Shown piece after piece: positions 11,250 through 35,700 of a DNA stretch of 64,000 bases. Source of the stretch: Cycas panzhihuaensis (Eukaryota > Plantae > Cycadophyta); the NCBI GenBank assembly GCA_023213395.1, contig CM041465.1, positions 30,139,741-30,203,740 on the forward strand. Direction: 5' to 3'. Position 1 is the first letter of the stretch; every line of letters begins with the position of its first letter. The translations under genes were made by a program, and so were the position numbers. Below the pieces are notes generated by a model. The model saw only the letters and a list, made by a program, of their open reading frames with translations. It ran no database searches and was not told the DNA's origin.

Positions 11250-12212
11250 TATGCAACTCTACTTGAATCAAGGCTAGATGCCTCAACACTATTAAGTTGG
11301 AGGGGTACAAAGGCCCACAAATATAAAATGAAACAGTGGGATGTAGTAAACGATGCAATGCAAACACCAACACAAGAATATGCACTTGGTGACTCGAGGC
11401 CACAAAAGAATGCCACCACCCGAATCCATGGGAATGCTCAAAACATTACTTGCCCAAACATGTTATAGATAAATTGCTATGTTTATCCAACAGGCTTGAG
11501 GCAATGTTGGTCTTCACTCCATGGGTTTATTCAAAGTTCAAATGGAAGATTTGGAATTCCATCGAGGTATCACAATTGCCCTACACAAAATCCTTCCTTG
11601 CTTTGATACCAATTGTGATACTAGTTGTGGAGTACAATTGTCTTAAACGAAAGATAATCCATTAATTACAATAAGCAATCCAAATTTACAATCAACAAGG
11701 CACCCCAAACATGTGCAAAAGCCAACTATCCAAACCAAGAGATGATAAAACTGATGATCACAACACATTCATTACTACCTACAAATACTAGATAATAAAT
11801 TATTTTAGCCAAGTTGGCTAACTCAGTTGCGGGTCAGCAACAGATTCCCTCAATTTCAATATCATAACTGTAAAATACTCAATATTTCCCATTTTGAAAG
11901 ATGCCTTGGTCCATTTGGAGGGGTCAACACACAACAAATATGTCCATACAGACCTGCAGCAATCGTACAGTTATGTGTAGGCCACACAAACCTGTAACAA
12001 CACCATATGGCTGCATTAAAGGCCCAATAGGTCATATGGTTTAGAAACAATATGTACAACTTGTAGACAAACCATACAGCCCCTATGGGCTTGTACAATT
12101 GCTGTGCATTGTTATACAGACCTATAGGACAGATCTGTGCATCTCTCGCTCTTGCAAGCAATATAGTGGCCATGGGCCCCACCTAAGTAGGAAAATTTCT
12201 AAATCTGTAACA
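11250..12212 (-). mobile_element. Old LTR element: leader, Met PBS (11600-11611) and probable 5' LTR 11614-~12212
   Basis: gctttgatacca-at-TGTG is a PBS/LTR junction in reverse. The LTR end (tgtaaca) is tentative. Confidence 0.45.
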
Positions 12213-12802
12213 AAAATAAAAAATTAGCATGGAGGATGCATGTTGATGATTGGAGAATTTGATGATAAAAGGGAATTGTTTTGTCATTTACATGTTGAAC
12301 TACAAACTAGGGTTTGCATTAAATGATTATAGATAGTAAAAACTGCATCTATTTAGTAGTTGGACCATAAACTTTGCAGAACAACCCATGGGAGAGATTT
12401 TGCTTGAAACCCTTGTGATAATGATTTTTATGCTTGATTGCATTTAAATCATGGCCCTTTATGATTTTATGGAAAGCTTTTATAAAATTGCATTAATGGC
12501 AAATTCGAGGAACCATGAAGCTTGAGAAATATCTCATGAAAATTATATGACATCAGTTTTGATTATTTGGCTTCCATAGAAAATGAGTTATGGTTATTTG
12601 CATTCCATGGTGATTAATTGTAAAAAAATGAAAGAACCATGGCATTAATTGTGGCAAATAAAGGAGCCACGACATTAATTGTGGTGAATAAAGGAACCTT
12701 GGCATCCATTGACATTAGGGCATGGTCTATGAATGAATAATTGATTCTTTGTGAAAGGTACTTCCATGCCATTTTATTTCCGTTCTTCTTATTTAGTCAA
12801 GT

Positions 12803-13081
12803 TGTTAGGATTAGTAATTTGACAAGCACATCAAACCCTAATGGTGAGCAACAAAAGATGAAGTATGCACATAATAGACACCATGTTGGAGAATTGGCCA
12901 AAACTCAATTATGAACAAGTAAGAGTACATACTTATAGTACAACTTCACCACTAGAGAAAGAACCCCATTGGACTACTTAGAGGTGGCGCACATATCAAG
13001 GTGGCCCACAACTCTAATATAGAATACACAAGATAGAGAGAGTTTACATAGGGCTAATGGAATTGAGTATTACACCCAACA
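12803..13081 (-). repeat. 3' LTR of the young element
   Basis: Direct repeat of 16575-16853, adjacent to the PPT. Confidence 0.95.
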
Positions 13082-13134
13082 TTCCCCCCTGTAATAGTCA
13101 ATTACATAAATATCGTCACTTCAATGATAAGCTC

Positions 13135-13660
13135 AAGTCTCCAAAAATTCTTTGGATCGTAACTTTGCACATAATAGAAAGCTGCTGAAGTCCATATGAA
13201 GTAGAGTCCATCTACCGGAATGCATGGGTTATCAGCCGCTGCAACCGCCAGTTGGGTAGGAACTCCCTCTGTATACGTGGAGCAATCAGGAGCTGGCAAG
13301 AGTAGCTGTATAAGGTCCCACCCCTTGCTCATATGGGAGTGCAAGCAGGAAAATATATATAATAAGCACATGGCACATGGCACATGGCAAGAGTCTCCAA
13401 AAGTCTGCTGGATCATAAACATTGCTGGATCATAAACACTGCTGCACCGAATAAAAAGCTGCTGAAGTCCATATGAAGAGGAGTCCATCTACCGGAATGC
13501 ATGGGTTATCAGCCGCTGCAACCGCCAGTTGGGTAGGAACTCCCTTTGTATACGTGGAGCAATCAGGAGCTGGCAAGAGTAGCTGTATAAGGTCCCACCC
13601 CTTGCTCGTATGGGAGTGCAAGCAAGAAAATATATATGTATAAAGCACATGGCAAGCAAG
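13135..13660. repeat. Imperfect tandem duplication, ~278-bp period
   Basis: aaagctgctgaagtccatatgaag...gggagtgcaagca occurs at ~13178 and ~13455. Confidence 0.9.
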
Positions 13661-13775
13661 AGTAGCTTCTAAAAGTGTGTCCTACCTCTTGCTCAATAGG
13701 ACTAGCACTTCTTCGGCATCTATTGGCCGGAAATACAATGGCACTATGGCCTCAAACATGCCACATGGGCTAAAA

Positions 13776-13910
13776 TGATGCCTCATTGGGCTAACAACTT
13801 GCCACCATGGGCAAAAATAACCAGCATTAGAAATTTTTACATGATGCCTCATTGGGCTAACAACTTGCCACCATGGGCAAAAATAACCAGCATTTGAAAT
13901 TTTTACATGA
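13776..13910. repeat. 66-bp tandem duplication
   Basis: tgatgcctcattgggctaacaacttgccaccatgggcaaaaataaccagcatt occurs twice. Confidence 0.9.
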
Positions 13911-14734
13911 CTGAAAATGATATGTGACTTGTGTAGCACATGTGACTCTCTCTCATAAATGAAGTACAATATGATCACAATGGGTTCTCCAAGAGCTAAA
14001 AAGAAGTCCATAGTACATGTCATCCCCCCCATTCGGGGTACATTACATCAAGAAAACCTTGAAAATACAATATGTGCCTGAAGAAACTGAGAAAAAATGA
14101 AGATAAATAGGAACTTGTGACTTTGAACTTAAAAATCTCCATGAAAACAGCTCCAAAATGTGTCAAATGAAAGCTCTCTCTGTTACGGATCCAACGCAAC
14201 AGACGGAACTGAAATCGGACCTCCCAATCTCAAGATACAGTCAAAAACGTGAAGTACCCCTTAATAATGCCGAAAAAAGATGAAATAGGAGGTTAGCCCC
14301 CTTCATAAGTCGGGTCGCAGTCGTATTAAGCCTCCATATGACCAGGGCTAAAATGATGAGGAGCTAGACGGACCTGAAATCAATATCCAATTTGATTAAA
14401 TGTATTTTTTCAAATAAAAAATAATAATAACTTTTGATAATGAAATTACGTCCGTCAAAAACGCCCAAATTGAATAACAAAAAATATTAACCCTAAGTAG
14501 GGTTTGTTCGTCATCTTCAAAAAAATGTTGTCACCATAGTGTGCAGGTCTTGCCGCCCGCCATGATATGCAGGTCTCATATGTGCGAAGAAGGACCTCAA
14601 ATGTTCGGATATCTGTGAAATCAGCAGTATTTAAAAACTGCACATGAACGTTGCACTTGCTCAACACAGGGAGAGAATACTTTGGGGAAATACAGAATGG
14701 GTTGATCCCCCCGGAGCCATTAATGTTTAATTGT

Positions 14735-15104
14735 CTCAGACGGCGGTTGGTCTTCTTCAGAGCGGCAACCAGTCTATGTATGTGGGGCGCTCTTCCCCTT
14801 TCCCGTTTGGACAGCTTCAAGATCTGGAGCCTGTGATTGGCAATGGTGATCCCATGCTCTGCAGGAACTCGTGGTTGAAATACGTCGTGTCTTCCTCTTC
14901 CAGCTGGTTGCCTCCGCGGATGGGGTTGCTGGTACACACTGCCTCACGCAGGACACCCAGACAGAGCTACGCCCTTCGCGTGACTGATAATTTCACGCAT
15001 TTGTTGTCTTTTTCTTTCAGCTGGTTGTGTGCGAACAGTAGGTCATATTCGTACACTAAAGAAGGTTCCATGTCCGTCTGGGAGAGCCAGGCAAACCAAT
15101 CCAA
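14735..15104 (-). pseudogene. Captured fragment of a plant sterile-alpha-motif (SAM) domain protein gene, N-terminus
   Basis: Minus strand reads DWFAWLSQTDMEPSLVYEYDLLFAHNQL...NQLEEEDTTYFNHEFLQSMG/ITIANHRLQILKLSKRE. This matches the plant SAM family pattern MDWFSWLS...LVYEYGL.F.HNELEEED..YFNHEFLQSMGI.IAKHRLEILKL. One frameshift and a ~94-bp insertion. Confidence 0.85.
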
Positions 15105-15475
15105 TATCAATCCAGGTCACATACCTCTGCATCGTATCCAATAAACACACTGCTAACTGTGGCTTCAAATCTTTGTACAAAACTACCAAGTCATACCATG
15201 CTCTTACAACTCGAGGCACATTGTTGTCTCATCGCATCTTTTATCCGTGTTGCAAGTGTGATTTCTTCTGAGTTACGAGGATAATCCAAACTAATCAACT
15301 CATCGTCAAGGGCATTCAAAATTCGGCAAAACATATCTACAACCGTGGGACCTTTACTCAAGGAAGACAACAAATCCAGGAAGACTGACGGCCAACGCGA
15401 TGGGTACTCCATAAATATCAAAATAGTAAAAATCTGAGCTAACTTATTTCTCACAAAAACCGGTCTCTCTGCCCC
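15094..15475 (-). pseudogene. PSD: Captured intronless fragment of Exportin-T (PAUSED/Xpo-t/Los1 family)
   Basis: [26 protein letters not shown]...VVDMFCRILNALDDELISLDYPR...RIKDAMRQQC/PRVVRAWYDLV...LDTMQRYVTWIDIGLV matches the plant exportin-T N-terminal region. One frameshift near 15217. Confidence 0.9.
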
Positions 15476-15484
15476 ACAAAATCT

Positions 15485-15870
15485 CCTTGTGTATCTCGAA
15501 CTTCAACTGTTATAAGGCTACTTAGGCCATTCTTTTCAAAGTCCTCCCTTGCAGAATTTGCTCGAAGCTCATGGAAATCAAATGTATAAACATGACCTGT
15601 GGGTGCGACAGCCCGTGCCAATGCAGTGGTGAGAGAGCCACTTCCAGTACCAGATTCCAGCACCAAACACCCAATGACAGATTTCTAAAAAGGAGACGAC
15701 AAAGCTGATGTCTGCTATGTACAGGACCTGAGTCCTGTGGCCCAGAACTAGAGTCCATAACTCAGGAGTTGGTGCCAACAAATGCACAAAACCACTTTTT
15801 TTATTGAAAACCTTGCATCCAAAAGGCTTCCTAATACAGTCAGGGTGGGCAAAAACACCAAATCTGTTCT
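15485..15870 (-). pseudogene. TRM61: Captured intronless fragment of the tRNA (adenine58-N1)-methyltransferase catalytic subunit (TRM61/GCD14)
   Basis: NRFGVFAH...[78 protein letters not shown]. Includes the SAM-binding motif I ESGTGSGS. One frameshift near 15680. Confidence 0.93.
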
Positions 15871-15951
15871 AAGGCTCCGCCTCACAGTGGAATTCAATTA
15901 GACTGAAGCTTCTATATCTTCTTAACATAGCACCATGGAAGGAGAAAGCTC

Positions 15952-15971
15952 TTTTTTTTTTTTTTTTTTTT
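15952..15971 (-). repeat. A20 tract (element sense), possibly a captured poly(A) tail
   Basis: T20 on the + strand. In element orientation it follows U-rich 3'UTR-like sequence. Confidence 0.55.
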
Positions 15972-16574
15972 CGGTAAAAAAATACATGAGAACAGGCCAA
16001 ATTTTGAAGGCCTTAAATACAAAAAAAATTCTGAATATTTTTCACATAAGATGAGCACATATCAATAGAAGAAAAAATGACCTTTATCCACCTGTAGATC
16101 TGCAAAGAAAATTTGAAATAGAGTTACTCCTGGCCAAGGAGGACTCTCTCAACTGCTGTCAACGATCTGGGTTGCATTATTGTCCACTGACGTGCAACGG
16201 AGATGGTCTTCCAGTAATTGGAATCTAAACATAAGCTGTCATGGACTTTCACCTGCATGCAATATTATTGTGGCGCCACATGTGGAGAAGATGTCCATTT
16301 GAGCAGCATCAACAGGCTTCAAAACAGCTACAAAACTTCAAAATAGGCTTGAAAACAGCCTCTCATCATCATCAAAACAGCCCTTCAAAACTTGATAACA
16401 GTCCCATAACAAAATATGCATCAGATATAACTTGAAATAATCTTCAACTTGACAAAGTCATGAAACAGGTACATCAAAAAATTTACAAGTGTTGAAAGTT
16501 CAAAATGCACGAATGGCATGTACTAGGATTTGCAAGAAAGGCCTCCAAGGGTTGAACCTTGGGCTCTGATACCA

Positions 16575-16853
16575 TGTTAGGATTAGTAATTTGACAAGCA
16601 CATCAAACCCTAATGGTGAGCAACAAAAGATGAAGTATGCACATAATAGACACCATGTTGGAGAATTGGCCAAAACTCAATTATGAACAAGTAAGAGTAC
16701 ATACTTATAGTACAACTTCACCACTAGAGAAAGAACCCCATTGGACTACTTAGAGGTGGCGCACATATCAAGGTGGCCCACAACTCTAATATAGAATACA
16801 CAAGATAGAGAGAGTTTACATAGGGCTAATGGAATTGAGTATTACACCCAACA
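16575..16853 (-). repeat. 5' LTR of the young element
   Basis: Directly abuts the PBS (gctctgatacca 16563-16574) and is followed by the TSD. Confidence 0.95.
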
Positions 16854-16949
16854 CAAGTTAGTTTTGAGGGGCAAATAGTCTAATCATGAAACTAGATTTT
16901 GAAGCACAATACAAAAACTTGACAATCATAGCAAAACCTTAGCAATCCA

Positions 16950-17110
16950 TGTGCACAAGGATGCACATGGCTCCATGCATGGAGATGCACAATAGTGGAG
17001 AAGCTCATTTGCATTGCGATGCATATGACATCATGCATGGGAACGCATTAGAATACGGTTGTTCATATGCACAAGGATGCATATGACCTCATGCATGGGG
17101 ATGCATGAGG
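16950..17110. repeat. Degenerate ~59-bp tandem repeat, about 3 units
   Basis: tgcacaaggatgca(c/t)atg..catgcatgg.gatgca recurs. Confidence 0.6.
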
Positions 17111-20100
17111 AGCCTCAAGGAATGGAAGGAAACACCATCGTGCGGTGGATGAACTGTAAGAGCAAGGGTGACCTGTGCATGGGGATGCATTCTATTTTTC
17201 TCTTGGGTTTATGGTGGGCAAAAGAGAGAATAAGGGAATGTTCACAGGGATGAACTTAGAAGCCTGAAGTATCAATCCACAAGGATGGATTAGCACTAAA
17301 CCCACAGGGATGGGTTTGGGGAGTGGCATGTCGACAAGACTGGACTATAAGAGGCCAAAGCACCATAAAGATGGGGATCTCTAAACAAGAATGATAACCA
17401 ATTATCTACATGACTAGGAACTATATTTGCCGCTAAATTAAACACCATTTTGAAGCCAAAGAGCTTGAGTGCCCCCTCCATGCTTGAGGGAACATCCCAC
17501 CTTGAATAGTGAGATCTAATGCACCCAAGGAAGACACTACCCTACAGTAGATGATCTCATGCCTGAAAATGAGACCGGGGCACCATTCTTATGCTAATGT
17601 GTGGAAACATCACCACAAAGATGGACACTGCAGTGGGTAGACATAACACACCTTGAGTAGTCACCATTCTAGCTCAAGGAAGCAAGGGACAACACATATA
17701 GGAATGCTTAATGGCAGGTTCAAGCACATGGTACTGGAGCATCTCATTCCTAACCTAATCATTCTCCTTTCGTATTGTAATAATTTAAATAAACAATTCT
17801 CCTAATTAAAATGTTTTTTGTGTGTGGGTGTGCTGTTAAATAAAAAACTGGGGACAAAGTTTGTAATAAAAATGCTTGATTGCCAAGCAATATAGCTAAG
17901 TTGTACCTTCCCTGCTATTCAAGAAGTGTGCCGATTACTACAGATTGTCTGTATAAGTGGCAAATGACAAAGTCAGGCTGTTGAGTACTGAAATCGGTGC
18001 CCTCGGTTAATTATCAGCCTTTTGAACTAGATCTCAGTGCGCCCCTTGATGGTGTTGTGTGCTCACCTACATATGGGTAGCTGGTGCAATGACAAGCAAT
18101 AGCAGTCAATACAATTGCATAAGATTCAGGCACTGCATTGTACCCAGCACCCCCTTATTCTTAAAGAGCAACAAACGACAATTCACTTGTTGAATGCTCT
18201 GCAATAGAACACCTAAACTGGTTCTTGCTGGTATTAGGACAGCAACACTCTGGAAATTTGGTTGGCTATGAGCATAGTAGGCGTGCTCAAAAAATAATGA
18301 AACAAATTAAAAAAAAATCAGGAAAATACTATAATTTGAAACTTAGGGGGGTGGAGGGAACAATAAACAGACAAGGAATTCTTTTTCAAGTGTACATATT
18401 CATTATTGCACAAAAAATACAAATACCTTATATAGTTTTCCACAAGCAATGCTGTTTGCCATTTTAGTTTTAAACAGCTGATGAACAAAGTAACAAAGAT
18501 CAACCCCGTTAACTGACAAATATGCAAATGCCAAAAACATCATTAACCAACAGTGACTTTACTTCAAGCTTTCTCCATAAAAAATTCTGTCTGCTGCTGC
18601 TTCTCTGAAATTTGCTGTGCAGCTATCACCCGTTGATTCCCTTCATCAAAGCCTCTAATAACAGTTCTGAAAGTCGACTATCACAGAAGAGAGGCCCTCA
18701 AGCCTCAGATACACAATGTACAGTAAAAACAATGCCAAGATACACAGCATGCAGGGAGAAAAACAATAACAGAACCTAAGCCCCCTAGTCTCTACTTTAA
18801 GTTTCCACTTTCAGCTTAGTTTTTGCTGTCAGTCTCAAGCAGTTCTCTTTCTTCAAAGTCCATGTCTTTTTCACTTTAATCCCTCAAAAAAAATTTCATT
18901 TCAAGCTTCAGTCATTCAACTTAGTTTTTTATTGTCTCCAACTGCTCAATTTAGGTTTTTTTCCTTCTATTTCAGGCTTCAGACATACAGTTTAGTGTTT
19001 TAACAAAAATGGAGGCCGCCCTGTGGCATCTGAACATTTCTCTGATGCACAGTCAATGCAGCATAGTTGACATTTAATAAAATGGAAGTTTATTGAGTAT
19101 TTAATTTGGCCAACCCCCCAAAATTTATTAAAGGAAAGTTTTGTTTGATTAGGTCAAATATTGTTGGCATGGCTATGAGGACAGTCTATTTATAAGACAA
19201 AAGTAATGTAAGGATCCATTCAAAGCTTGTACATGCCCGTTCCATCTACAACTAGTGTAAATAGCATTTACTTGTCTGAGACTTCAAAGGCAGGCCTTCA
19301 ATGCAAAGACCAATCTACCAGCATAGCACGTTATCTGTTTTTTCTCTCACAATATTTCAGAATGGCTCTTTGTTTGCATCTGAGCTGATCCTCTATCATA
19401 ATTGAGACTCCTGTAGGATGGTAGGGGCTTTACACTCTCCATGTGCAGGAAAGATATTGCCCTGGCTTCCTCAGTTCCTCATACAGACCATAGGGGAAGG
19501 TGGTGCTACCCGCTGAAGGGTACATACCAAAATTTTCTGCAAGCTTGTTCGGTTTATCGTTCTTACTTGGTGACAATCTTCACAACACGGAGACAATCCA
19601 AGTAAAAATGGGAAATACAAGAGATTCTTTCTAAAAACTTAGGATCAATCATATAAGCTTTTATTTTGAATTAAGGGAAATTGCCTCAAAAATTTTTGTG
19701 AGATTATTCACCCACACCCCGCAGTACCGCACACAATAAACAATAAGCTGAAAAGGAAAGTTGGCAACTACAGGTCGTGGGAAAAGATGGCACACCTTGG
19801 TAATTCTGATCATTGGATCAAGATAATTGAGAACATTATATCTGTCCAAAGAGCTTGTAAAGAATGATGTGAATTAACAGATAACTCCCAACCATCAGAT
19901 TAGAGCAATTGATCAGATCCTAGCCATTGAGATAAAACAAAGAGAAGGCCCTCAGAGTCAACACAGAAATTTTTGAGAAGCCACCTTGCATTCCATGTCC
20001 CACGTCCTACATCTTGCAAGGAATGCTCACAAGGCAATGCAAGTCTAGCCTAAGGCACAAGTGCGTGTCTAAATGAATGAAGACTCCATCCTACATCCCG

Positions 20101-21186
20101 CACTCGCATCCCAAAGAACAAAGTTTGAAATCTCAACTCAGGCATGCCGGTGCAAGTGTGGTCCCCACCACGGTGAGGCATATTTTCACTCGTTCGAGGC
20201 AGATTTGCATTAATTCCCCTACTTAACTTGTTGATTATCCCACTAATCCTACATCTATTACTTCGAGCATGAGAATTTAATTCACCTATCACCCTCCTTT
20301 TTCACTCTGTCGAGTCATTGATCATCTCATTATTGCACCTAGTGAACCTTAGAAATTCTCAGAGTTTCTATAAGTGACAAATCTCTATTAATGCACAAGC
20401 AACAATAGGAAGACTATCTCACAAGTGAATGTTTTTAAATTTACACACTACTCCCTATGTTTTAATATTGCTTGCTCCCTGTGTTTGCCCTTCTTTTTTG
20501 TTAGCCCAGCTAGGTATTCAGGATGGAGGATTAAAGACCTTTCAACTCAAATGGTCGTGGCTGCCCAAAACAACATGGAGTCAGACCTGTCTAATAAATA
20601 CAATGGAGATACCTCAGTCACAAAGAGACTAAGAAGATGTGGCCTGCTTCAAACAGGCTATGCAGATGAAACAATGTTTATTCTCTATGTTATCAAGGAG
20701 CATGGCGCTCAGCCTAACAAAGATAATAAGGGAACCCACGATGAGGAAAATAAATCCTTTTACAATTTTGCCCTGCTGCACTCTCAAAGGATTTTGGCAC
20801 TGCCAAAATCCACTAAGACATTGTCTCCTAACTGAATTCTTTATGCTTCAAAGAAAGGTAATTCTCTGAATAAGATAATTGATCAACATCATGCGTATCT
20901 CTCCCTAAGGAGAAAAGGAAACTTGAAAAGGAAGAAAATGAAGGAAAAAAAGATAAAAGTTCATCATCAAAGAGTAAAAGAAAAGTGGGATAAAAATTTG
21001 AAAATACAAGTTTCACACCTACATACTGGGGAGGCCTGTTGAGTACTAGCGACTATGGGGTGAACACAAAGGAAGGTAGAACGAGAAATCCAAGCTAAAG
21101 ATAAAGCTCTAACTACTTTGGGCAATCCCGACAAAGAATCAATCAGACCACCATTGTTGTCCCACTCCTCAAAACCAAAGAGTACA

Positions 21187-24100
21187 TGTTAACCTGGCAG
21201 TTAATTATTAAGCCACCTAGTTAATGTTAATGCGCTTTAATTAAGCGAAAAGATGCGAAGCCAAAAGGTGCGACTTATTCGGAGAGTCACAACCCTAATT
21301 GGGTGACACCTCTTGGAAGAATATAAATGCCTTGAGGCCTTGTGTATTCGATGAATCATTGTATCAAGCCATTGTGAAATAATCAAGTGATCTATCAAGG
21401 ATCCTTTTATGGTGGGGTTTTTCCCGAAAGGGTTTTCCCACGTAAATCTTGTGTACTGTGCATCTGTTTTCTGTGTGTATATTTGTTTGCTTGCTGTGTA
21501 TGGTTAAAGATTTTGCGGACGGGAACACTTGTATATAATTTCATGTTCCTGAACATGGTATCAGAGCCGTAGGGTTCTACACAGTTGAAGCTTGACGTTG
21601 AGCAGGGCAGTAGGATCATTGGTTGTCGGGTAACGCCGTCTAATCTAAGACGAATCTTGAGGATCCATCAACTCCAACAACGTGTAGAAGCAGGCACAGC
21701 GAATCAGTGGTGGTTGAAGCTGTGAAATTCACTATTCAATGGGGAATAAGGGTTCGTTGGAGTCGATATTCAGGCGTCAAGACCATGTTTGTTGTTGGAA
21801 TTGACTTGTTGAAGGTCATCCAAAACCGGTTGAAGAACTGTAGTAGTAATTCAAGCCAGCAAGCACGCGTTGATGTTGATTCAGAGACTATAAGGAAAGC
21901 CAACCTTGTATACATGTAAAGTTGGTTCATTTCTCATCAAAGCCCTCAAAATTTATCCTCATCAAAGCCCTCAAAATTTATCAATGAAATAAGCCTGTGT
22001 TGCTATCAAATCTTCTTCTCTGCACTGGTGGACGTGATTGGAGCCAAGTTTTGGTGTTTTTTCTGTCCTTTTCTAAGTGCTGGCCTGAGTACATAGCAAT
22101 AGCAGCCATTGTTCATTGAGCAATTCGATCTTTGCATGAGTTAGAACCTCATTTACTACCTATATAAGCCCGCATCTGGGATATCTGTGGCTGTTTGTGG
22201 CTGCTATCCACATGGCTGGGCAGATTTTAAGTTGGCTGGGCACTTTATACAGCCATATCTGTGTGTGGTGTGTTGACTGGGCATGATTAAGAGGCTGCTG
22301 GGCGGAGCTGGGACTGTTTATCTGCCGTACTCAGGCATTTTTGGCCTCTCCAAATGCTGGCTGGGCTGCTTGTGTGCCTTTTTTGAAGCTCGTAAGAGCT
22401 GGCTGAGTGCTCTTTTATGGTGGCTAGGCGCTGGTTGTGTTGACTGGGTGCATCCTTGAGTGCGAGGGCCTTTTCTGTTTGTGTCTGGGACAGTCACTAC
22501 GCGGTTGGACTGTGTTTGGAAGCTTCTTACCAGCTGGAAGGAAGGGAGAAAGGCTGTGGACCTGCGCATAGAGTGTGGCTGCCATTTCTCTTCACGCGGC
22601 TGCCGCATTTCGTTTATGACTACGAAATGCATTAGATAAGAAACAACGCATATATTGCTTCATTAAACCTTTGCAACCTTAGCTTAAGGCTTATAAATAT
22701 TAATACTTTGATTTAAGCATGTGTGCGTTATGTTTTTTTAAGCCACGTAAGGAGTGAAAAGTCGTTACATTTGGAATATGCCTTTTAGCATATTCTCCTT
22801 TTAATATAACTTTATAAAAGGGACCCTTTATACCATTGATATCACACCTTTTACATATTGTGAAGTACTTTGAAGCTATTTGAAGCATTCTTCTTTCGTT
22901 TTGAGCACAGATCGAGGAGGATTATTGTGTTTTGTGACTTGGAGACCGTGCATCATCGCCTATGGAACCGTCCTTTGATTTGGAGCATGTTTTTTAAACC
23001 TTTATTTGTGTTAGTTGTGACATTTACATGGCTATTTAAGGTCGTTTGTTAACGGTTAATGAGGGATAAACAGTCAGTGGCTCACTTAACATGGGTATAG
23101 TCAGTGTTGGGTGCCCTTGGAAGCATGCTTGTGAGCCAAAAGAAGACATAGGGGTGTATTTCGTCCTGCAGATGTTCGTTTTTGGTGTCGATTGATTCAT
23201 ATTGAAGCTCATTTCTCGAGATGGAGCGCATTATGCCCAAAGTTATTTTTAATGGTAACAATTTCAGCGAGTGGAAGGCCAATATGGAGCTTATTTTGAT
23301 GGTGAATCAGCTCTGGAGTATCACCAAGGTGAAAGCAGACGCGATTCCCCTAAACCATAAGAAGCGAATTCGTCTCAAAGAGAAGAAATTTATGGCCATG
23401 GGACTGTTGAAACTGTCACTAGCGTCAGACTAGAGAGCATTGGTTTACAATCTAGACGAACCAGATAAGATATAGAGAAAACTGTGTGATACATTTGAAA
23501 AGAAGCAAATGAATAGGCGTCTTGCAATGATGTTGGAGTTACTCAACTCGCGTGTGGAGGATGAGAACAACATCAGCTCCTACTTTAACAAGATTACAGA
23601 CTTGAAGAATAAGCTAGAGGAATTGAAGCCGAACTCGATCGATGATGCGTTGCTATTCGTAATAATCATGTCAAAATTGCCGGCTGCCTTCACCACATTC
23701 CAGATCATTTATGGTAGAGACGCAGTGATGGAAGCAGAGACGTTTGATGGGCTTAAAAACCTGATTCTAACGGAGAATGCCAAGCTCAAACATCACAGTA
23801 TGCTTGGAGGTTCTAGTTCAAGTCAGGCCCTAGCCATGAAAACTCAGAGGAAGGAGGCCACTAAGGAGGAGAAGATCACACAGAGGTCAGGAGAAAGTTC
23901 TCATGACAAAAAGAAGTTCAACGGAAAATGCAATTACTACAAGAAGGATGGTCACCGCAAGAAGAATTGTTGGTTCAAGCGTCGTGACAAGCGCAAAGTC
24001 AACCAAGATGATAAAGGGAAGAACATTGCTCACTGCGTTCAAGCAAAAGCCTTATCAGTCGAGTCAAATCGGAGAGATTATTGGGTGCTTGACTCTAGAA

Positions 24101-27029
24101 CGCAGAAGCACATTTCTTACCAAAGGCGGACTTTAATACGATGACTTCAAATCAGAGTGGTGTTGAGATTGTCCTAGGAGATGCTCGTGTTTTGCTAGTA
24201 GAAAGTATCGGCGAAGTTTCCATTGCAGGAGGTAAATTTACCAAGGTATACTATGTACCAAAGATACAGTTAAACCTTCTTTCAGCCTGGGAAATCTGCA
24301 AACAAGGTATGAAGGTGGAGCTCTACGATGACAAATGCCTAATTAAGGATCTGAAACAAAACTTTGTCGTCATAGCTACTGGGAAAGTCAGGGACAACTT
24401 AGTTTCAATCTCAGAAGAAGTCCTATGCCGTTATTGCCAGTGCGGATGATGTAAGTTGTGGCACAATCGCCTAGGGTACATTATTTACAGGAGTATTGCA
24501 TTGCTGAAGAGGTTGAAGATGGTGGAAGGATTCCTGTCGATTACTTGCTCAGATGGTGTGTGCGAAGGGTGTATGTATGGCAAGCACCACTGCTACCCTT
24601 TTGCTCGAGATAATGCCTGCAGAGCCAAGGAGAAGTTGGAGCTTGTACATTCAGACATAATGGGTCCTCTTCCTAATCCTTCAATATTTGGAGCTCATTA
24701 TATCCTTGTATTTGTAGATGACTACACCAGGAAGACCTGGGTTTACTTTCTCAAGAACAAGTCAGACGTGTTTGATCGCTTTCGTGACTGGAAAGTGATG
24801 GTTGAAAATGAAAGTGATAAAAAGATAAAGATGTTAAGAAGTGATAATGACAAGGAATACGACAATCGCGCGTTCAATCAGTTCTGCGATTATAGTATAA
24901 AGTGGGAATTTACGGTCCCATATACCCCACAACAGAATGGAGTTGCTGAAAGAAAAAACCGTACCATGATGGAGATGGCAAGGTGTATGGTGTATGCTAA
25001 AATCCTGCCATCAAAGTTTTGGGCAAAAGTTGTAGCGACTGTTGTTTATATTTTGAATCTGGTACCCACTCAAGTAGTTCGCAGCATGACCCTCAAAGAA
25101 AAATGGACCAGTCGTAAACCTATCATTAGCCATTTAAGAACTTTTGGGTGTATTGCGTACGCCCACATCCCAGATGATACCCGCAAGAAGCTGGATCGGA
25201 AGAGTCTGAAGTGCATATTCATGGGGTATTGCACTGAGAATAAAGCCTACAAACTATGGGATCCACAAGGGGAGAAGATTGTGGTTAGTTGGGATGTAAA
25301 ATTTGATAAGTCATCGACATATCATGCTGACAAATCGTCAGAGGAACCTTTTTACCCCCCCTTCTCCCATTCCCAGATACATCAAGTGAAGAGGACAATG
25401 AGCCAATTGCTAGAACACCTGAGGAAGCAGGACCAAGTGGGATGAGTAATAGTGAGGAGCCGCCGCAAAATGAAGTACTTCCAGAAATAGGTCCTTCAAT
25501 ACCTTTATGGGCAAGGAAGACTCTCGAGGATTCCAGTGTGGCGATGCATATCTTAACTGATGATCAAAGAATAAGAAGTCAGTATGCCAGTTGAACTCTC
25601 TTGGTAGACACCAACAACTCCAATGATAATGATTCCTCCGATGAAGCGAAAGGAGACCCACGGTGGAAAGTTGCAATGGAGGAGTATAGTTCTCTACTGA
25701 AGAACAACACGTGGGATTTGGTTCCACTACCTTTGACGAAGAACCTTGTGGGATGCAAGTGGGTCTACAAGACAAAATCCCGCTCCGATGAAGAGGTGGA
25801 CAAGTACAAGGCCATACTTGTTGCTCAAGGATTCAAGCAGAAAGAAAGAATTGACTATAGGGAAATGTTTGCACCAGTCTCCAGAATGACAACGATCAGA
25901 TTGCTCATTTCCTTAGCAACTGCTTACGGTTGGGAGTTACACCAGATGGACATAAAGTCTGCATTCCTTAATGGAGATATAAAGGAGGAGATATATATGT
26001 CGCAACCTCTAAGATTCGTTAAGGATGGCCAGGAGCACCTTGTCTGCCATCTGAAGAAGTCAATCTATGGCCTGAAACAAGCACCTCATGCTTGGTATGA
26101 AAATATGGAAGCGAAGTTGAAAGCTTAAGGTTTCAAGATTTCAGAACTCGACCTAAATCTGTATGTGAAGAGAAGAGGGACTTCAATAGTTGCTTGCATG
26201 GTGTATGTGAATGATTTGGTCATCGGCGGTAACTGTGTCAAGGTTATTGCTAAAGTCAAATCCAATCTGGGAGCTTCATTTGACATGACAGACCTTGGGA
26301 GACTTCACTACTTCTTGGGCATTCAGGTCAAGCAGATGGATGGCAGGATGGTGTTGTTGCAGTCGCAGTATGTGAAGAACTTGTTGGAGAAATTTGGAAT
26401 GCAAAATTGCAAACCAGTTGCAACACTATGTGTAAAAGGCGCTAAGTTGCAGAAGGATATGGCCAAGCCCTCTGTAGATGGCACAAAGTATCACCAGTTG
26501 GTAGGGAGTCTGATCTATTTGACTCATACTAGGCCTAATATCGCATACGTTGTCGGGTTGGTTTCTCACTACATGCGGAATTGACAAGGATAAAGAAGTT
26601 GTAGGATAATCCCAACCTTCGTGATAACACAACTGTTGCAGTTGGTAGGCTCCCCACATTCACATTAAGGGGGGATGTTAACATGGCAGTTAATTATTAA
26701 GCCACTTAATTAATGTTAATGTGGTTTAATTAAGCCAAAAGGTGCGACTTATTCGGAGGGTCACAACCCTAATTGGGTGACACCTCTTGGAAGAATATAA
26801 ATGCCTTGAGCCCTTATGTATTCGATGAATCATTGTATCAAGCCATTGTGAAATAATCAAGTGATCCATCAAGGATCCTTTTGTGGTGGGTTTTTTCCCG
26901 AAAGCGTTTTCCCATGTAAATGCTGTGTACTGTGCATCTGTTTTCTGTGTGTATATTTATTTGCTTGCTATGTATGGTTAAAGATTCTGCAGATGGGAAT
27001 ATTTGTGTATGATTTCATGTCCCTGAACA
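21187..27029 (+). mobile_element. Ty1/Copia element 3 nested in the Tat 5' LTR. LTRs 21187-21555 and 26676-27029
   Basis: TSD GTACA, PBS tggtatcagagcc 21556-21568, PPT aagggggga. Confidence 0.95.
23221..26640 (+). pseudogene. Copia gag-pol, RNase H largely deleted
   Basis: FNGNNFSEWK gag start, CCHC knuckle remnant, WVLDS protease, LVHSDIMGP and PYTPQQNGVAERKNRT integrase, QMDIKSAFLNG RT. The reading jumps from ...VSHYMRN to the PPT region. Confidence 0.92.
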
Positions 27030-29706
27030 GTACATAACAAAACAAAGACAATCAACCATAGGCAATGGCTCATTGTCAATGATTCTTAAAATTTTGCAAA
27101 TAGTCCAAAGGCCTGTCCTTAGCAGTCTCAATAAGCTAAACTGGGACAATTGATGAAGTATCAAGGCCTACTTTTAAGAAAGAATGCATCCACTAGCCTA
27201 CTGAGGAACACACTAACTAAAGAGAAAAATTGGACCTATTTCAGAACACGTTCAAAGAAAATTCAAGCTCATTTGAACCAATTAGAGGCTTGCATATCAA
27301 TGATCAAGTTCTAGCCACTAAAAGATTCAAAAAATAAAACAAGTGGCAACAAAAGCTAGAAACAACAATTGAACATTTGAGTCATTATATAGTGCTACAC
27401 GATCATTTGTCATCAATCAAATGATGAGAGACAAAGATGGTTGTTGGGAGTAGGTTTCTTTTAAAATTCCAACTCTTCATCTTCTATTTTTTCTTGTTAT
27501 TTATTCCTTGGCTTTCTCAAAAAAGAAAAATGGAAAAAGAAGGGAGGAGAGGTTTTTGAAAAAAAAAAGAGAAAAAAATAGGATTTGGGTTTTGCAGCCC
27601 ATCCATCTTGTAAGCTTTGTGTGTTTTAGGAGCTCAGTATGTTTTTGGCTCTAAAAAGTTAGAGCTTGTAAGTTTTTCTCATAGAGTTTGGGAGCATAAG
27701 AGAGGGAATACTAGGTATATTCACTCCTCACCCTTTTGTACATTTCATGCTATTATGAATAAGAAAAATCCATTTGACTAGGTCTTTATGTTATCTAGAT
27801 GGACATTCATGATTATGTAATGGCCATTTAGTTTTCTCTCTTTTCCTTGCATGTTATGATGTACTCTCTTCATTTGATCTTTCACTTTTTTTCTCGTGTG
27901 ATGCTCATGTTCATCAACATGATCTTATTGTTCACGTATGAATAACTATTATATATCATGTACATAATATTGTGCAGTTCCCCACAAATATATTTATTTT
28001 AAGTTATCCCAATTTTTTTGTGATAGTATAGCAAGAACATTATGCAAACCAATCAATCTTAACTTATTAATCTTTTGCTAGAAAGGTACAAAAAACCCAA
28101 ATAACAATTTTGGCGAGCATACTGGGGAGGCCTTCTTTCAAGTTTTTTACCTATTTCTTCTACTTTTTGGTCCTTTCTTTTTCTATCTTTTATCCCCACA
28201 TAGTCCAATCTCTCCTTTCAATCTTAATTCTTTCAAAAAACCATATACCTACCCAGACAAGGCCTAGGGTGTAGAAGCACTCCTTCATTCTCCTTTTGAG
28301 AGAAAACCTTAAGGTATATCATGTCCTTCGACTCAAGACCCACGGTACGAAGCTAAAGAAAAGCTGACATTTCAATTCAAGAGTCCATTGGCCACCAAGA
28401 TAGAAAGTCTAACTCAAGTTCATCTACAAATATGGGAGATTAAGGTGTTGGTAGGGACTATAACCCACAGGTTGAGGATGCTCTTGCATGGTTACATAGC
28501 AATCCACTTGACCTTCAAGATGATTTGCACATCCTAAATAAAGCATGGGTTGTCGTGCCCAAATTTAGTGAAGGAGAGGCACCTTTCATAGATGAACAAC
28601 ACATTCATGCTCATATGTTTAACATACAACATCTAATGCAATTGTTAGACTTTTCATCCACACTTCAGAAGGAGAAGCATCTTTGTGGTATCAATCCTTG
28701 CCCAATGCCTCAATTCAAAATTGTAAAGAATTAATACCAATCTTTGAAGCTAAGTACTTTTGTAAGAAGACCATGCTCGCATTGGTTAAGAAGCTCGCCA
28801 ATAATAAAAAAGGGGCTCAGGAATCTGTCCAAGAGTACATTAAGCATTTCTCCAAACTTCTCAAGAGAATTAGTCCTAAATTCTGGCCAACAAAACCTTG
28901 TCAAGAGGAATGGTTCATCAAGGGTTAAGATAATGTAATTAGACCAATTGTGGTTCATAAGTTCCTCGTTAGTCTTAAGGAGGCCCAAAGTTAGGCCCTA
29001 GGATTGGAATTGGTAAATATTCAGAATGTGTTATCACTTCTTTTTTAGAAGACACTCCCACTATTAGGGCCAAGAAGGGAAGTGCTCCTAATTTTGATTC
29101 TTTCACATTACCTCAAATGGATCCTTAGACTTTCACTGCATACAAGAAGGACCTAAATGAAAATGCATACCTAAAAAGGATGCTTAAGGGCAACGATATT
29201 CAACAACCTCCAACTACAATATTGAAAAGGCCAAAGGGCAAGCCTACGAACAATGAGTAAGGTTTCTTTGATGATTTGATTGACAAGAATATGGTTAGGA
29301 ATCTTGTTCTTGAACCTGAAGAGACCTTAACTTCCTATAGTCAGCACCCTCTCCCAAATTTGGACGTGCCTAATTTCGTTAATGAAGAAAATCCTGAATG
29401 GGCATATGGGGGAGTGGCTGTTATCACTGAAGCCCAAGTTCTTAGGCTACACAACATGCTCAAGCACCTAGTTAGAGAAGCCAAAATGACCCCTCGATTA
29501 AAGTCCCAGCAAATGCTTCCCCTAACGTGGAAACTACAAAAGTCCTAGTGGTTTCTATAGGAATCCTACCCTAAGGAATTTTTTACCACCGCAAGGTCAA
29601 CCTATTTCCTCAAGCCCTGAATTTCGTTCCTAATAGGCCTTTCAAGGAATATTGTATCAGGAAAGACTTAATCCAATTTCAAGCCAATATCAATCTCGCC
29701 CAAGTA

Positions 29707-30213
29707 TTGAACCTCCCTAATCAAAGTGCCAAGATGATTAATTTGTTGAAAAGAAAAGATCCTATATTAAGAGCACCTATCCAAGGGGTAAATACTAAAG
29801 TGATAGCCATGGTCAATATTTCTTCTCCAACTTCATCCAATCTTGAACCATTTAATCTTTCCCTCCTAGTTCCCGATAAATACAATCTGCATAATTGCAT
29901 TGTGGACTTTGGAGTGGCATATAATTTGATGCCTTATGCTATCATGAAAGCTTTAAAGTTAAAATGTGTGAAATTGGTCCAGAATGTCCAAGGTTTTGAT
30001 GGGAGGAGTGCTACCTCAATTGGAATCATCCAAGATACGACAATGAAAGTCATTGCAAACCCTCTAGTGATAGCAGTAATTGATGTGATGGTTGTTGGCA
30101 TGAATCCTATCTACAAAATGTTGTTAGGAAGGCAATGGTTCGTTAATATTAGCATTGTACCAAATGTTTGTATGCCATACATCACTTTTCCTATCATGAA
30201 AGAATTGATTTAG
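29707..30213 (+). pseudogene. Gypsy aspartic protease, copy 1
   Basis: PFNLSLL...LHNCIVDFGVAYNLMP (decayed D-S-G-A) and MLLGRQW. Confidence 0.8.
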
Positions 30214-31335
30214 CTCCTAAGGGAGGATAGAGCAAAGAGACATATTGAACATCTAGAAAGAGACATTTTGGATCCCCCATGTCGACATACAAGATCAAGG
30301 ATATACACAATTTTAAATGATCATCACAATTACCCGTCCACAATAGAAGAAGAAGCCTACCTCTTACAAAGGGGTGCTTTTGACAATATTTGGATCATAC
30401 ACTTCAATAGGGCCAAGTAAGACACTAAAGACAATGGTCATCTTGAAATCTCCTCATATCAGGTCTTTTACTTTTTCTTATAAATTTTCATTTCAAAATT
30501 AGTCCTAAATTCTGGCCAACAAAACCTTGTCAAGAGGAATGGTTCATCAAGGGTTAAGATAATGTAATTAGACCAATTGTAGTTCATAAGTTCCTCGTTA
30601 GTCTTAAGGAGGCCCAAAGTTAGGCCCCAGGATTGGAATTGGTAAATATTCAAAATGTGTTATCACTTCTTTTTTAGGAGACACTCCCACTATTAGGGCC
30701 AAAATGTGAAGTGCTCCTAATTTTGATTCTTCCACATTACCTCAAATGGATCCTTAGACTTTCACTGCATACAAGAAGGACCTAAATGAAAATGCATACC
30801 TAAAAAGGATGCTTAAGGGCAACGATATTCAACAACCTCCAACTACAATATTGAAAAGACCAAAGGACGAGCCTACTGACAATGCATAAGCTTTCTTTGA
30901 TGATTTGATTGACAAGAATATGGTTAGGAATCTTGTTCTTGAACCTAAAGATACCTTAACTTCCTATAGTCAGCACCCTCTCCCAAATTTGGACATGCCT
31001 AATTTCGTTAATGAAGAAAATCCTAAATGGGCATATGGGGGAGTGGCTGTTATCATTGAAGCCCAAGTTCTTAGGCTACACAACATGCTCAAGCACCTAG
31101 TTAGGGAAGCCAAAATGACCCCTCAATTAAAGTCCCAACAAATGCTTCCCCCAAGGTGGAAACAACAAAGGTCCTAGTGGTTTCTATAGGAACCCTACCC
31201 TAAGGAAGTTTTTACCACCGCAAGGTCAACCTATTTCCTCAAGCCCTGAATTTCGTTCCTAATAGGCCTTTCAAGGAATATTGTATCAGGAAAGACTTAA
31301 TCCAATTTCAAGCCAATATCAATCTCGGCCAAGTA

Positions 31336-31842
31336 TTGAACCTCCCTAATCAAAGTGCCAAGATGATTAATTTGTTGAAAAGAAAAGATCCTATATTAAG
31401 AGCACCTATCCAAGGGGTAAATACTAAAGTGATAGTCATGGTCAAGCTTTCTTCTCCAACTTCATCCAATCTTGAACCATTTTATCTTTCCCTCCTAGTT
31501 CCCGATAAATACAATCTGCATAATTGTATTGTGGACTTTGGAGTGGCATATAATTTGATGCCTTATGCTATCATGAAAGCTTTAAAGTTAAAATGTGTGA
31601 AATTGGTCCAAAATGTCCAAGGTTTTGATGGGAGGAGTGCTATCTCAATTAGAATCATCCAAGATATGACAATGAAAGTCATTGCAAACCCTCTAGTGAT
31701 AGCAGTAATTGATGTGATGGTTGTTGGCACGAATCCCATCTACAAAATGTTGTTAGGAAGGCAATGGTTCTTTAATATTAGCATTGTACCAAATGTTTGT
31801 ATGCCATACATCACTTTTCCTATCATGAAAGAATTGATTTAG
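31336..31842 (+). pseudogene. Gypsy aspartic protease, copy 2
   Basis: Duplicate of 29707-30213. Confidence 0.8.
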
Positions 31843-32146
31843 CTCCTAAGGGAGGTTAGAGCAAAGAGACATATTGAACATCTAGAAAAAGACATTTTGG
31901 ATCCCCCATGTCGACATACAGGATCAAAGATATACACAATTTTAAATGATCATCACAATTACCCGTCCACAATAGAAGAAGACTACCTCTTACAAACGGG
32001 TGCTTTTGACAATATTTGGATCATACACTTCAATAGGGCCAAGTTAGACACTGAAGACAATGGTCATCTTGAAATCTGCTCATATTAGGTCTTTTACTTT
32101 TTCTTGTAAATTTTCATTTCAATATACTAGTAACAATGCTCAATAC

Positions 32147-32710: not shown

Positions 32711-35700
32711 TGTTGAAATATTCAAAAGAGATCATTCAATATCAAAAACAATTGAACAAGTATCATGAACATAATGAAGATAGCATTAACTCATAATCAT
32801 AAATGTCTACATCATAACGACACCACAACAATAACACCACAATAAACTCCATCTTGACTCAGTGTCCTCTACTCTACCTTACTCACTTATTTATACATTA
32901 TAAGTGAGAATATGTGAAATGAGGTGAGGTACATGTGAGACTATTAACCTCTAACACAACTAATGACATAACACCTATTAATTGACCAATAACCTATTGA
33001 CCACCTACTTGCACAAATGTGCATTACATTAATATTATAATGTTAACCCTCTAAAGTCTGACACCTCCCCTTAATGCACATTTGGAGACTTCTTGAATTT
33101 GCATTGTCTTGATCTTGGAATTGTCTTGAAAATAATGTCTTACTTCGATCTTCATCTTCATTCCTGCAGTGATATCCTTGTAGTAGTTTTTGAGAGTAGT
33201 GGTCTTTGAACTTGACTTTCTTCATCTTCATGTGCAACATCGAATCCTTTGCCCTACAAATGGTGTAGTAGATCATAATTGGTCCAACTTGAGCTCGATG
33301 TAGATCTGACAAGTAATCATGTAGGTAATCATCAAAAGTATCTTGAAATTCAAAGTTTATATCAAGCATGTCTTCAATCATTGTTTCAATCACCTGTTTG
33401 CCTTCATTTTCTTCAACATGTAAACAATTAACATTAATTGAGCCAACATCAAAATTTGAAGGTAAGACATCAAAAGTAGAATCAACATCACTTGAAAAAT
33501 GAGCATCAACATCATGTATGAGTTCTCCCTCTTGATTAGTATGTCCAACAACAATTCTTTTAGCTTCTGGAGCAGAGTCTTCATCAACTTGTGAACAATT
33601 CAAATTTGAACCAATGGTCAAATCAGGAATTGAGTTTGTATCAACAGGTTTATCTTCAACAGAACAAACAAATTTGGATTCATCCTCCCCTAAAACAGTA
33701 AATTCTTCTAGAGAAACTTCTATTGCATGATCAGAATATTCAGTATTCAGTTCATCAATCTTAGTATGCTCAATGAACTCATCAGATTCAATAACAAACT
33801 CAATTGTAGTTTCTTCACATTCATCAATAGTCTCATCAATTTCTTGACATACCTTTTTACCTGTGTTATCAGTACTATCTTCATCATCTTCTTTACCTGT
33901 GTTGCAGCCATCAACAGTTTTGTTTGCTTTTTTAAGAGCCTCTTGAGGGCTCTTTTCATACACATCCTTCAAAAGATTCCATGCTTCTTTGGCAATACCA
34001 ACATTATGAATTGTATGAATGAGAAAATGGTAGGAAGAAGGAAGATTATCTTTATCAAATGCAACAAGCATAACATCAATTGTTATTCTATTCTTTTTTC
34101 TAAAACTTATTTTCCCCTTTACATCAATTAAGACAGCATCTTGTCCATCAATGATAAATTTCCATAACTTTTTGCACACAAATATACTTTGCATTTTGAT
34201 TGCCCAATATAGAAAGTTTGTTTCGGTGTATTTAGGTAAGGGAAAAGGAAAATCTGTTAACCAATACTCATTCCTTTTAGGTACAAAAATAATGATGTCG
34301 TCCAACTCCATGATGGAAGAATGAATTGATTAAAAGTACATTACCCAAGACTCATGCATCCATTTTAAATTAAAATAACTTCATCAAACCAATAGCGATA
34401 TACCTTAAATCATACTCTAGGTTGTAGTACTCTGAATGAGGATTCTGGCGGTTCAGACGGTTTGCAAAACGGATGCTTGGTTGAAGAGATATGAAGAAAA
34501 GTGTGCAAACATTCCTTGTTGAAGAACATATTGATGTCATTAGAAGATTAGCAGCAGGTCACATTGAGATTCTATATGACCAAAGGTTTAACCACTAGGG
34601 GGCTGGAAGACTTCAAAGTGGATTCCAATTCACTTTATTCTAGATTTGATTTTGCAAAAATAATTAAATCCGCCTAATACACTTTGACATCTGCAAATTC
34701 CAAATGGAGTTTCAAATCAATTAGATTTAACATATAATTTTAAAAAATCAATAACCCTACCTCAAAATTAAACCTACGCAAAATCAATCTTTCCTCTGCA
34801 ACACAAAATTCGTGGCGGTCTTCACTTCAGGCTCATCGACAGATGCAATCTCCACAACTATGACATATCATTATGCGCTTTCCATCAACAGCTAGTTAGG
34901 GTTTACACCTGCAAACCTTCGCTTCATTCTTTTGCATGTAGGTATGTGACTATCCAACGATAATTCCGGGAAACGAGATGTGATTTCAAAGTCGCTTCCA
35001 ACGGTATAATTCGAAGGTCCTCTCTTCTATATTTGGGAGGTACCCATTTACTTATTTTGCAAATCAAAATAGCTCAATTCTTGACAGCTCTTGGCTCCTC
35101 CTATGCCGTGAATCCACTGATGACTTTGCAACCTATTAAAATTGTGTAGAAATTGAGTTCTGAGTGTCGAGATAAGGAGAATTTCTTGAGTTTTATTAAG
35201 GCAGGAAGCTCATTGGTCCCATTGAGCAAGCCAATCTGTGCATCTTCTAGTCTTGGCTCAAAGAGATTCATGAGATTTGGCTCTTCTTCCACGCTTGCGA
35301 CTCTCTCAATCTACTCCATGCATGGTTGGGCTTTCCATGCATGCTTCATATACCTTGAGCTAGGGTTTCTTCATATCTATAGGCACCACTTCCTTAGTAG
35401 CTCTTTATTTACAGACATGCAAACCATCGGTCTTCAACTGGGCAAAAACGTGATTCATAAACTCTGATACGAAGTCAAAAAGGGGACAAATAGAACCACA
35501 TACCTTTTGATCTTCACTACTTTCAAGCAGCATATCAACAGCAGCAGGTTCAACTCCAACAACCTATGATGATAACTCCGTAGTACTCTTTTCCTGCTAT
35601 GACTTATGCATCAATAGCCCTTTCAGAATCATGTCTATGGATAATTACAAGGAGTACGTCCTGCTTCTAATCTATCTTCTCTCAATCTCACTTAATCTTC

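Follow-up and report, generated by a model that had tools for sequence, protein, structure and literature searches.

A young, non-coding LTR retrotransposon of Cycas panzhihuaensis with pieces of host genes, probably acquired by template switching

How does a non-coding retrotransposon come to carry pieces of several host genes, and do such pieces serve the element? The question is raised by a 4,051-bp element on the minus strand at positions 12803-16853 of a 64,000-nucleotide stretch of the cycad Cycas panzhihuaensis (assembly GCA_023213395.1, contig CM041465.1, positions 30,139,741 to 30,203,740; this whole stretch is called the window). Its interior holds fragments of the genes for TRM61 and exportin-T, of a SAM-domain gene and of a further expressed RNA. 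An original prediction, made from the sequence alone, had set the limits of the element, which were confirmed, and had proposed a functional tie between two of the fragments and the tRNA that primes its reverse transcription. We consider it quite probable that this is a young, non-coding long terminal repeat (LTR) retrotransposon whose middle was replaced by pieces of host RNA through template switching, and whose cargo is probably without function. The best reading, by analogy with Bs1 of maize and GmaRetroS15 of soybean, would be LTR-mediated retroduplication by template switching, a known process of which this element would be a further case.

The element has the structure of a non-autonomous LTR retrotransposon. 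The two LTRs agree at 279 of 279 bases and have TG...CA ends, and a perfect 5-bp target-site duplication (TSD), CAAGT, flanks both sides (chance 0.25^5, about 0.001). The 3' LTR is directly preceded by a polypurine tract (PPT), and the primer-binding site (PBS), which begins TGGTATCAGAGCC on the minus strand immediately 3' of the 5' LTR, is one that we take to be of the initiator-methionine tRNA (tRNA-iMet) type. Models of gag, reverse transcriptase, RNase H and integrase matched none of the 20 internal frames at E<=1 in a Pfam profile search. Two classes of miniature terminal-repeat retrotransposon (TRIM) were considered and rejected: Cassandra, with its 5S rRNA-like LTR sequence, as Rfam gave no match at E<=1 over 12000-17700, and a strict TRIM, as the element is too large even without the cargo (2,654 bp without 14575-15971).

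In element sense the cargo runs TRM61 (piece a), exportin-T, SAM (piece a), RNA X, SAM (piece b) and TRM61 (piece b), RNA X being a short piece of expressed RNA (Table 1). Much of the original prediction is borne out here, namely the non-autonomous LTR structure, the three gene identities, the frameshifts and the order TRM61, exportin-T, SAM; it had overlooked the second TRM61 piece (14575-14678) and the X insert (14908-14998) that splits the SAM fragment. Pfam profiles, solved structures and homologue searches all support the identities. TRM61 matches the GCD14 profile (E 3e-26 and 5e-15) and the structure of human TRMT61A (E 1e-14), with a weak GCD14 match for piece b (profile positions 150-179, E 0.05). 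The exportin-T piece matches the Xpo1 profile (E 2e-20), its best solved structure is exportin-T 3ibv (E 4e-4, vs 0.08 for exportin-5), PF19282 occurs in 118 of the 120 homologues listed, and identity reaches 90% to Gb_29796 (Ginkgo, going by its label) and 84% to Cryptomeria. A word-index protein search with the SAM piece gave no match; an exhaustive protein search later succeeded with 77 homologue matches, 65 of which align in one frame across the 39-codon insert, and the SAM_2 cut-off was passed by all five tested. Every identified piece is broken, TRM61 by a stop and two frameshifts, exportin-T and SAM by one frameshift each. There is no long chimeric open reading frame (ORF), and the sole ATG-started sense ORF in a donor frame consists of 73 amino acids of exportin-T.

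Table 1. Features of the element and its borders (positions in the window; depth as defined in the text)
Feature	Position	Strand	Remarks
Target-site duplication CAAGT (left)	12798..12802		
3' LTR	12803..13081	-	279 bp, identical to 5' LTR
Polypurine tract	13082..13089	-	G-rich, directly before 3' LTR
High-copy non-coding 3' backbone	13082..14290	-	depth 20,745-93,157
Medium-copy segment between backbone and cargo	14291..14574	-	DNA depth ~670-690 (bin 14292-14482)
TRM61 piece b	14575..14678	-	residues 212-245 (tblastn); +1 frameshift near 14633
SAM-domain piece b	14679..14910	-	residue 27 or so onwards, with a frameshift near 14851; lower end approximate (contigs extend to 14690)
RNA X	14908..14998		91-nt piece of expressed RNA
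SAM-domain piece a	15005..15103	-	start codon position to about residue 28-33
Exportin-T (PAUSED) piece	15095..15475	-	residues 109-236; 2-nt loss near 15216
TRM61 piece a	15472..15891	-	approximately residues 36-171, with a stop in frame near 15870 and a +1 frameshift near 15675
60-nt segment between TRM61 piece a and A20 tract	15892..15951	-	
A20 tract, element sense	15952..15971	-	
5' internal backbone	15972..16561	-	medium copy near 16139, high from ~16190
Primer-binding site, presumably tRNA-iMet type	16562..16574	-	
5' LTR	16575..16853	-	279 bp
Target-site duplication CAAGT (right)	16854..16858		

Of 23 listed runs (coded X1, X2 and so on), 20, from 8 coded organisms and 12 studies, contain the window sequence or part of it, and contigs from some of them reveal how the pieces are arranged. 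The kind of runs X5 and X8 is unrecorded, their contigs being mRNA-like, and to treat X12 and X16-X20 as RNA is a guess. Host-type contigs of X12 match TRM61 piece a over 15482-15891 (record 1; 15 differences, 1 gap), TRM61 piece b (the same record; 3 differences, 1 gap), the exportin-T piece (record 7; 7 differences, 2 gaps), SAM piece b (records 2 and 3) and SAM piece a (record 6), and 15472-15481 recurs in a loose end of the TRM61 host contig. In X12 and in X8, a single host-type contig takes in the two TRM61 pieces, which it separates by 117 nt where the window has 803, and in X12, X2 and X4 a host-type SAM contig lacks the insert of 117 nt. Since the inserts are missing from the host-type contigs, both donors, TRM61 and SAM, were divided by pieces that came in later. 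By contig coordinates, overlaps of 3-9 nt stand at three of the five inner junctions, as counted with no null simulation: 9 nt between exportin-T and SAM (15095-15103), 4 nt between TRM61 and exportin-T (15472-15475) and 3 nt between RNA X and SAM (14908-14910). In addition, SAM piece a ends in a diverged repeat of 14888-14910.

Some details of these pieces stand apart. Compared with 14888-14910, the re-copied SAM stretch (15005-15027) has three G-to-A changes (element sense), all inside 10 nt. Some five changes and one gap are clustered at 14722-14728, with two positions at which all matched X2 and X12 contigs differ from the window; the cluster is probably private to this lineage. RNA X is matched by several related contigs of 0.4-3.5 kb (X12 records 4 and 5; X8 records 27-29), at least three per RNA-like run, with the match within about 100-200 nt of the contig end and always starting at 14998. 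Three of its frames gave no Pfam match and one frame no usable Atlas match; two matched loci were rejected as GC-rich bacterial-type DNA in an unlikely gene frame (one locus checked).

The chimera is older than the insertion that carries it. Relative to host-type contigs, the cargo differs at 18 of 514 bases in TRM61 (3.5%) and 7 of 381 in exportin-T (1.8%) vs 0 of 279 between the LTRs, and the probability of finding no LTR difference at 1.8% is 0.007. With the rate of 2.2e-9 used for Cycas (PMC9023351), the 95% upper bound on LTR age from 0/279 differences is about 2.4 My. The insertion is young for a gymnosperm, not necessarily very recent; the original prediction had called it very recent, and of this the identical LTRs and the youth stand, with a bound of only less than about 2.4 My. 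Sister chimeras were found, as partial contigs, in DNA of organism A (X2 record 9, 14904-15062, 8 differences in 159 nt) and in two runs of organism C, X8 (record 26, 14804-15124, 3 differences in 321, no gap) and X5 (record 27, 14649-15132, 12 differences in 485, 1 gap). Because these diverged contigs carry the same junctions, the chimera predates this insertion and has been recopied, as had been proposed from the frameshifts beside undiverged LTRs. X8 record 26 has the SAM frameshift too, since it has no gap. Two frameshifts appear to be common to other contigs of organism A DNA, the X2 depth lacking the host-type gap being 18.9 of about 31 at 15675 and about 100 of 110 at 14633; the exportin-T frameshift and several substitutions occur in no matched X2 contig.

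The order of the captures is less clear. The greater divergence of TRM61 does not place its capture before that of exportin-T, as the difference is not significant (Fisher p 0.15). The SAM piece differs at 24 of 277 bases from one contig (p 0.003 vs TRM61) and at 18 of 277 from another (p 0.07), its true parent being uncertain. It may be older than its neighbours, which would fit an import from another cargo-bearing family member; a paralogous parent explains the divergence equally well.

The family is dispersed and multi-copy, with 15,256 and 14,456 contigs matched in two DNA runs, mostly over the backbone and mostly at less than 99% identity. Depth, which is the summed contig depth of these two runs, about half of each read, and does not equal copy number (a point that counts against our reading), was 20,745-93,157 over 12764-14291 and 19,593-94,749 over 16202-16774, vs 1.8-168 over the cargo and 7-11 over the left flank. 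Overall, cargo depth is 2-300 and backbone depth 20,000-95,000, a gap of two to three orders. The original prediction had tied its functional idea to the existence of further copies and transcripts, and diverged chimeric contigs do exist, some of them in RNA-like runs. The sister chimera is likely transcribed, from one strand or the other, to judge from the organism C contigs. In X5, where the chimeric contig has depth 8, backbone depth is only 1-58 and most of the flanks are uncovered; because of this low depth and the bare flanks, DNA carry-over would not explain the contig. The X8 chimeric contig has depth 4. X5 record 27 and X8 record 26 each end, on one side, 30 nt into sequence shared with TRM61 or exportin-T, presumably where the assembly graph merged with the host path.

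How might such a cargo have been assembled? In the favoured mechanism, an autonomous Copia-type element would likely have supplied the particles. Within them, reverse transcriptase would have left the TRM61 template and returned about 90-117 nt further on, and would have left the SAM template and returned with a short re-copied stretch. The switches may all belong to a single round or may have accumulated step by step, possibly through recombination among family members that carried cargo. Transcription of the chimera from the LTR and a further retrotransposition would then have made the LTRs identical once more, the earlier damage to the cargo being preserved.

The competing account of origin, in which the pieces were copied in at the DNA level, as break repair filler or by synthesis-dependent annealing, and the element was later retrotransposed, strikes us as very unlikely. 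In its favour, intron loss relative to the parental genes is undemonstrated; microhomology is also a mark of DNA repair, and gymnosperm elements preferentially contain first and second exons (PMC13477047). However, the three identified pieces are all coding, in sense and without intron or promoter sequence, and the leave-and-return pattern needs several unlinked templates at hand. Almost the whole of the roughly 1.3 kb of uninterrupted cargo derives from exons and lies in sense, a result that DNA captured at random from a genome rich in introns and repeats would presumably seldom give. Nor does it look like a nested Pack-MULE, as no terminal inverted repeats surround it (score 37, reached by 167 of 300 shuffles).

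Several observations nonetheless weigh against template switching. Intron loss is undemonstrated for the cargo, which is colinear with mRNA-like contigs, and plant SAM-domain genes of this kind may be intronless. The exportin-T piece apparently lies inside a long first exon, with 21 of 25 short homologues stopping at residues 588-594. For TRM61, the Arabidopsis gene has at least two introns (PMC7475180). The SAM a/X junction has no clear overlap and that of SAM b with TRM61 b is not readable. In organism C, contigs extend over the two outer chimeric junctions by no more than 30-38 nt, at or below the 31-nt rule, under which only the two SAM/X junctions count as bridged. Among the contigs tabulated, not one extends over the entire cargo, nor does any connect cargo with backbone with 31 nt to either side. 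An autonomous partner with the same LTR ends was not found in the 64-kb window, where a Copia element at 21186-27029 was rejected for its non-matching LTRs, and exact PBS-LTR junction scans gave no match in the metagenome and viral contigs of two public collections.

Whether the cargo serves the element is a separate question, since TRM61 and exportin-T both belong to the tRNA pathway. The original prediction suggested that the element tunes the supply or modification of its own primer, tRNA-iMet, via these pieces, by RNA or small interfering RNAs (siRNAs), and we regard this as highly improbable. Two of the four donors do act on tRNA (the probability of at least two of four is 1.5e-4 for one pre-chosen 0.5% class and one element), TRM61 is present twice, the summed X2 DNA depth over its pieces is 75-300 vs about 4-6 for single flank contigs, and chimeric contigs occur in RNA-like runs. 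However, the tRNA class was picked post hoc, the TRM61 pieces stem from a single capture that was split, and the SAM gene and RNA X have no shown tie to tRNA. For each gymnosperm genome, 0.2-5.5 two-fragment elements with both donors in a gene class of 0.2-1% are expected by chance, an estimate built on figures from PMC13477047 that assumes the class sizes and treats captures as independent, which again tells against our side. The pairing is probably a coincidence, because such pairs are expected at genome scale even before many other equally telling classes are counted.

The biology of the primer argues in the same direction. In Arabidopsis, lower TRM61 leads to lower tRNA-iMet (PMC7475180), and a knock-down would cost the element its own primer. 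The original prediction also pointed to m1A58, the modification made by TRM61, as the plus-strand stop signal on retroviral primer tRNAs, a role it has for HIV-1 (PMC8599865). This does not carry over directly, because the plus strands of Ty1 and Ty3, which are likewise primed by tRNA-iMet, stop after 12 nt of the tRNA (PMC5371799), short of position 58, and these elements do not inherit tRNA sequence (PMC7472051, PMC5371799); plant Copia elements presumably stop in the same way. Further, the pieces are in sense and broken, with private changes (such as 14605, 14608, 14776, 15760) seen in no matched contig, all of which argues against conservation for base-pairing. A more far-reaching version, in which a transcribed sub-family amplified the TRM61 and exportin-T fragments across species and small RNAs from the cargo alter modification or export of tRNA-iMet, appears just as improbable; if true, this would be the first retroelement known to regulate a host tRNA pathway with captured gene pieces.

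A cargo kept as a shield, since siRNAs against it would strike essential host genes and strong silencers would be selected against ('camouflage' or epigenetic conflict), is unlikely, though somewhat less so. Arabidopsis embryos cannot do without TRM61 (PMC7475180), the chimera exists in several copies and is probably transcribed, and the camouflage idea is established for maize (review PMC13317346). However, cargo depth lies two to three orders under that of the backbone, so that the cargo-free family did far better, and in the conifer Platycladus elements with captured fragments have no overall drop in methylation (PMC13477047). The shield would also need essential donors, not tRNA donors. 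We are left with template switching and a cargo probably without function as the preferred reading.

This reading has close counterparts in other plants. Tan et al. (2016; PMC5131818) describe partial mRNA copies from several parental genes that replace the interior of LTR elements, with short junction overlaps (median 6 bp at 25 of 29 junctions), followed by further copying as a non-autonomous element and by transcription. The cycad element differs in its gymnosperm host, in a backbone without Pfam-detectable coding remnant, in two donors that are each split and in an intron loss that is undemonstrated. Maize Bs1 is likewise an LTR element of a plant that has taken up exon pieces from three unlinked genes, and its 1-5 copies have common switch points across related species (PMC5131818, PMC13317346), as the junctions are common here; Bs1 forms a translated chimeric ORF, whereas all pieces of the cycad element are broken. 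GmaRetroS15 (Gao et al., 2016; PMC4717578) is also non-coding, with a 5-bp TSD and exon-only pieces of three genes, and was recopied after capture. Among TRIMs, 78% are under 1 kb and those that carry genes are under 1.5 kb (1,172-1,449 bp; PMC4717578), in contrast to 4,051 bp here, or 2,654 bp without cargo, with 279-bp LTRs. Gymnosperm genomes each contain about 400,000 captured fragments, with two or more in 13.68% of the carriers (Bao et al., 2026; PMC13477047), and 19.81% of captured fragments are transcribed in Platycladus (PMC13477047). This survey is in bulk and of all element classes, and the portion of its main text covered describes no element of such architecture. No paper was found that links retrotransposon capture to TRM61 or exportin-T, nor any cycad-specific account, most subscription papers and supplements being outside the scope of the search.

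The element offers a clean, dateable gymnosperm case of an LTR element with captured pieces of several genes. At least two leave-and-return switches can be read from the nesting of its pieces, and the chimera outlived a split between related organisms, is still mobile and is probably transcribed. It could help to decide whether cargo accumulates from free host mRNAs or through recombination among family members that carry cargo, and whether methylation of an essential donor gene (TRM61) is affected when pieces of it have been captured. Its importance would be much greater if tRNA-pathway genes proved to be enriched in cargo across the family.

Outside the cargo, the 3' backbone (13082-14290) has a duplication with a 277-nt period (13166-13375 / 13443-13654, 94%) and a 66-nt tandem duplication (13775-13906), each skipped by some other family contigs (joints skip 279, 282 or 66 nt). 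It gave no Pfam or Rfam match of note, and the predicted fold of the 319 nt next to the PPT does not surpass that of shuffled sequence (z +1.32). Towards the cargo, 14400-14567 has a depth of 20-200 in the DNA runs, whereas in the two RNA-like runs it is 0. On the other side, the A20 tract (15971-15952) followed by 60 nt lies upstream of TRM61 piece a in element sense. The original prediction took the segment ending in this tract for a captured, polyadenylated mRNA; the tract is real, the captured mRNA undemonstrated. Depth climbs towards the PBS (640-877 near 16139, and 3,800 to over 25,000 from about 16190) and one family contig (X12 record 14) spans 15998-16283 unbroken, so the segment looks like sub-family backbone. 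The tract, at which the mapping tool cuts reads, may be the poly(A) tail of an element RNA that was polyadenylated too early, or it may be simply a run of A; the 60 nt beside it are covered by no RNA-like contig.

The insertion target seems to be an older low-copy repeat. The flanks at 12626-12715 and 16948-17105 consist of CATG-rich degenerate tandem units with periods of 30 and 58. Among the joints listed, one at 12723-17070 in runs X1 and X4 lies in these repetitive flanks and differs from the expected empty site, 12802-16859.

Other elements lie elsewhere in the window. A 2.7-kb element at 54933-57671 (minus strand) has 232-bp LTRs that are 97.4% identical, TSD TCATC, and as its sole frame a Copia gag-like one (Retrotran_gag_2 E 4e-6) followed by an acidic region; it looks like a gag-only, TR-GAG-like element. 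The element at 32711-36570 (minus strand), with 349-bp LTRs 93% identical and an iMet-type PBS at 36222, has a 428-aa acidic frame that by eye resembles this gag-like frame and has no Pfam match at E<=0.01. The Copia element at 21186-27029 (plus strand) is decayed, with LTRs of about 370 bp that are 89% identical, an iMet-type PBS at 21556, and gag and integrase matches. At 28868-32125 lies a 1.63-kb tandem duplication, 96.5% identical, with a 212-aa frame in each unit (one tested, no Pfam match).

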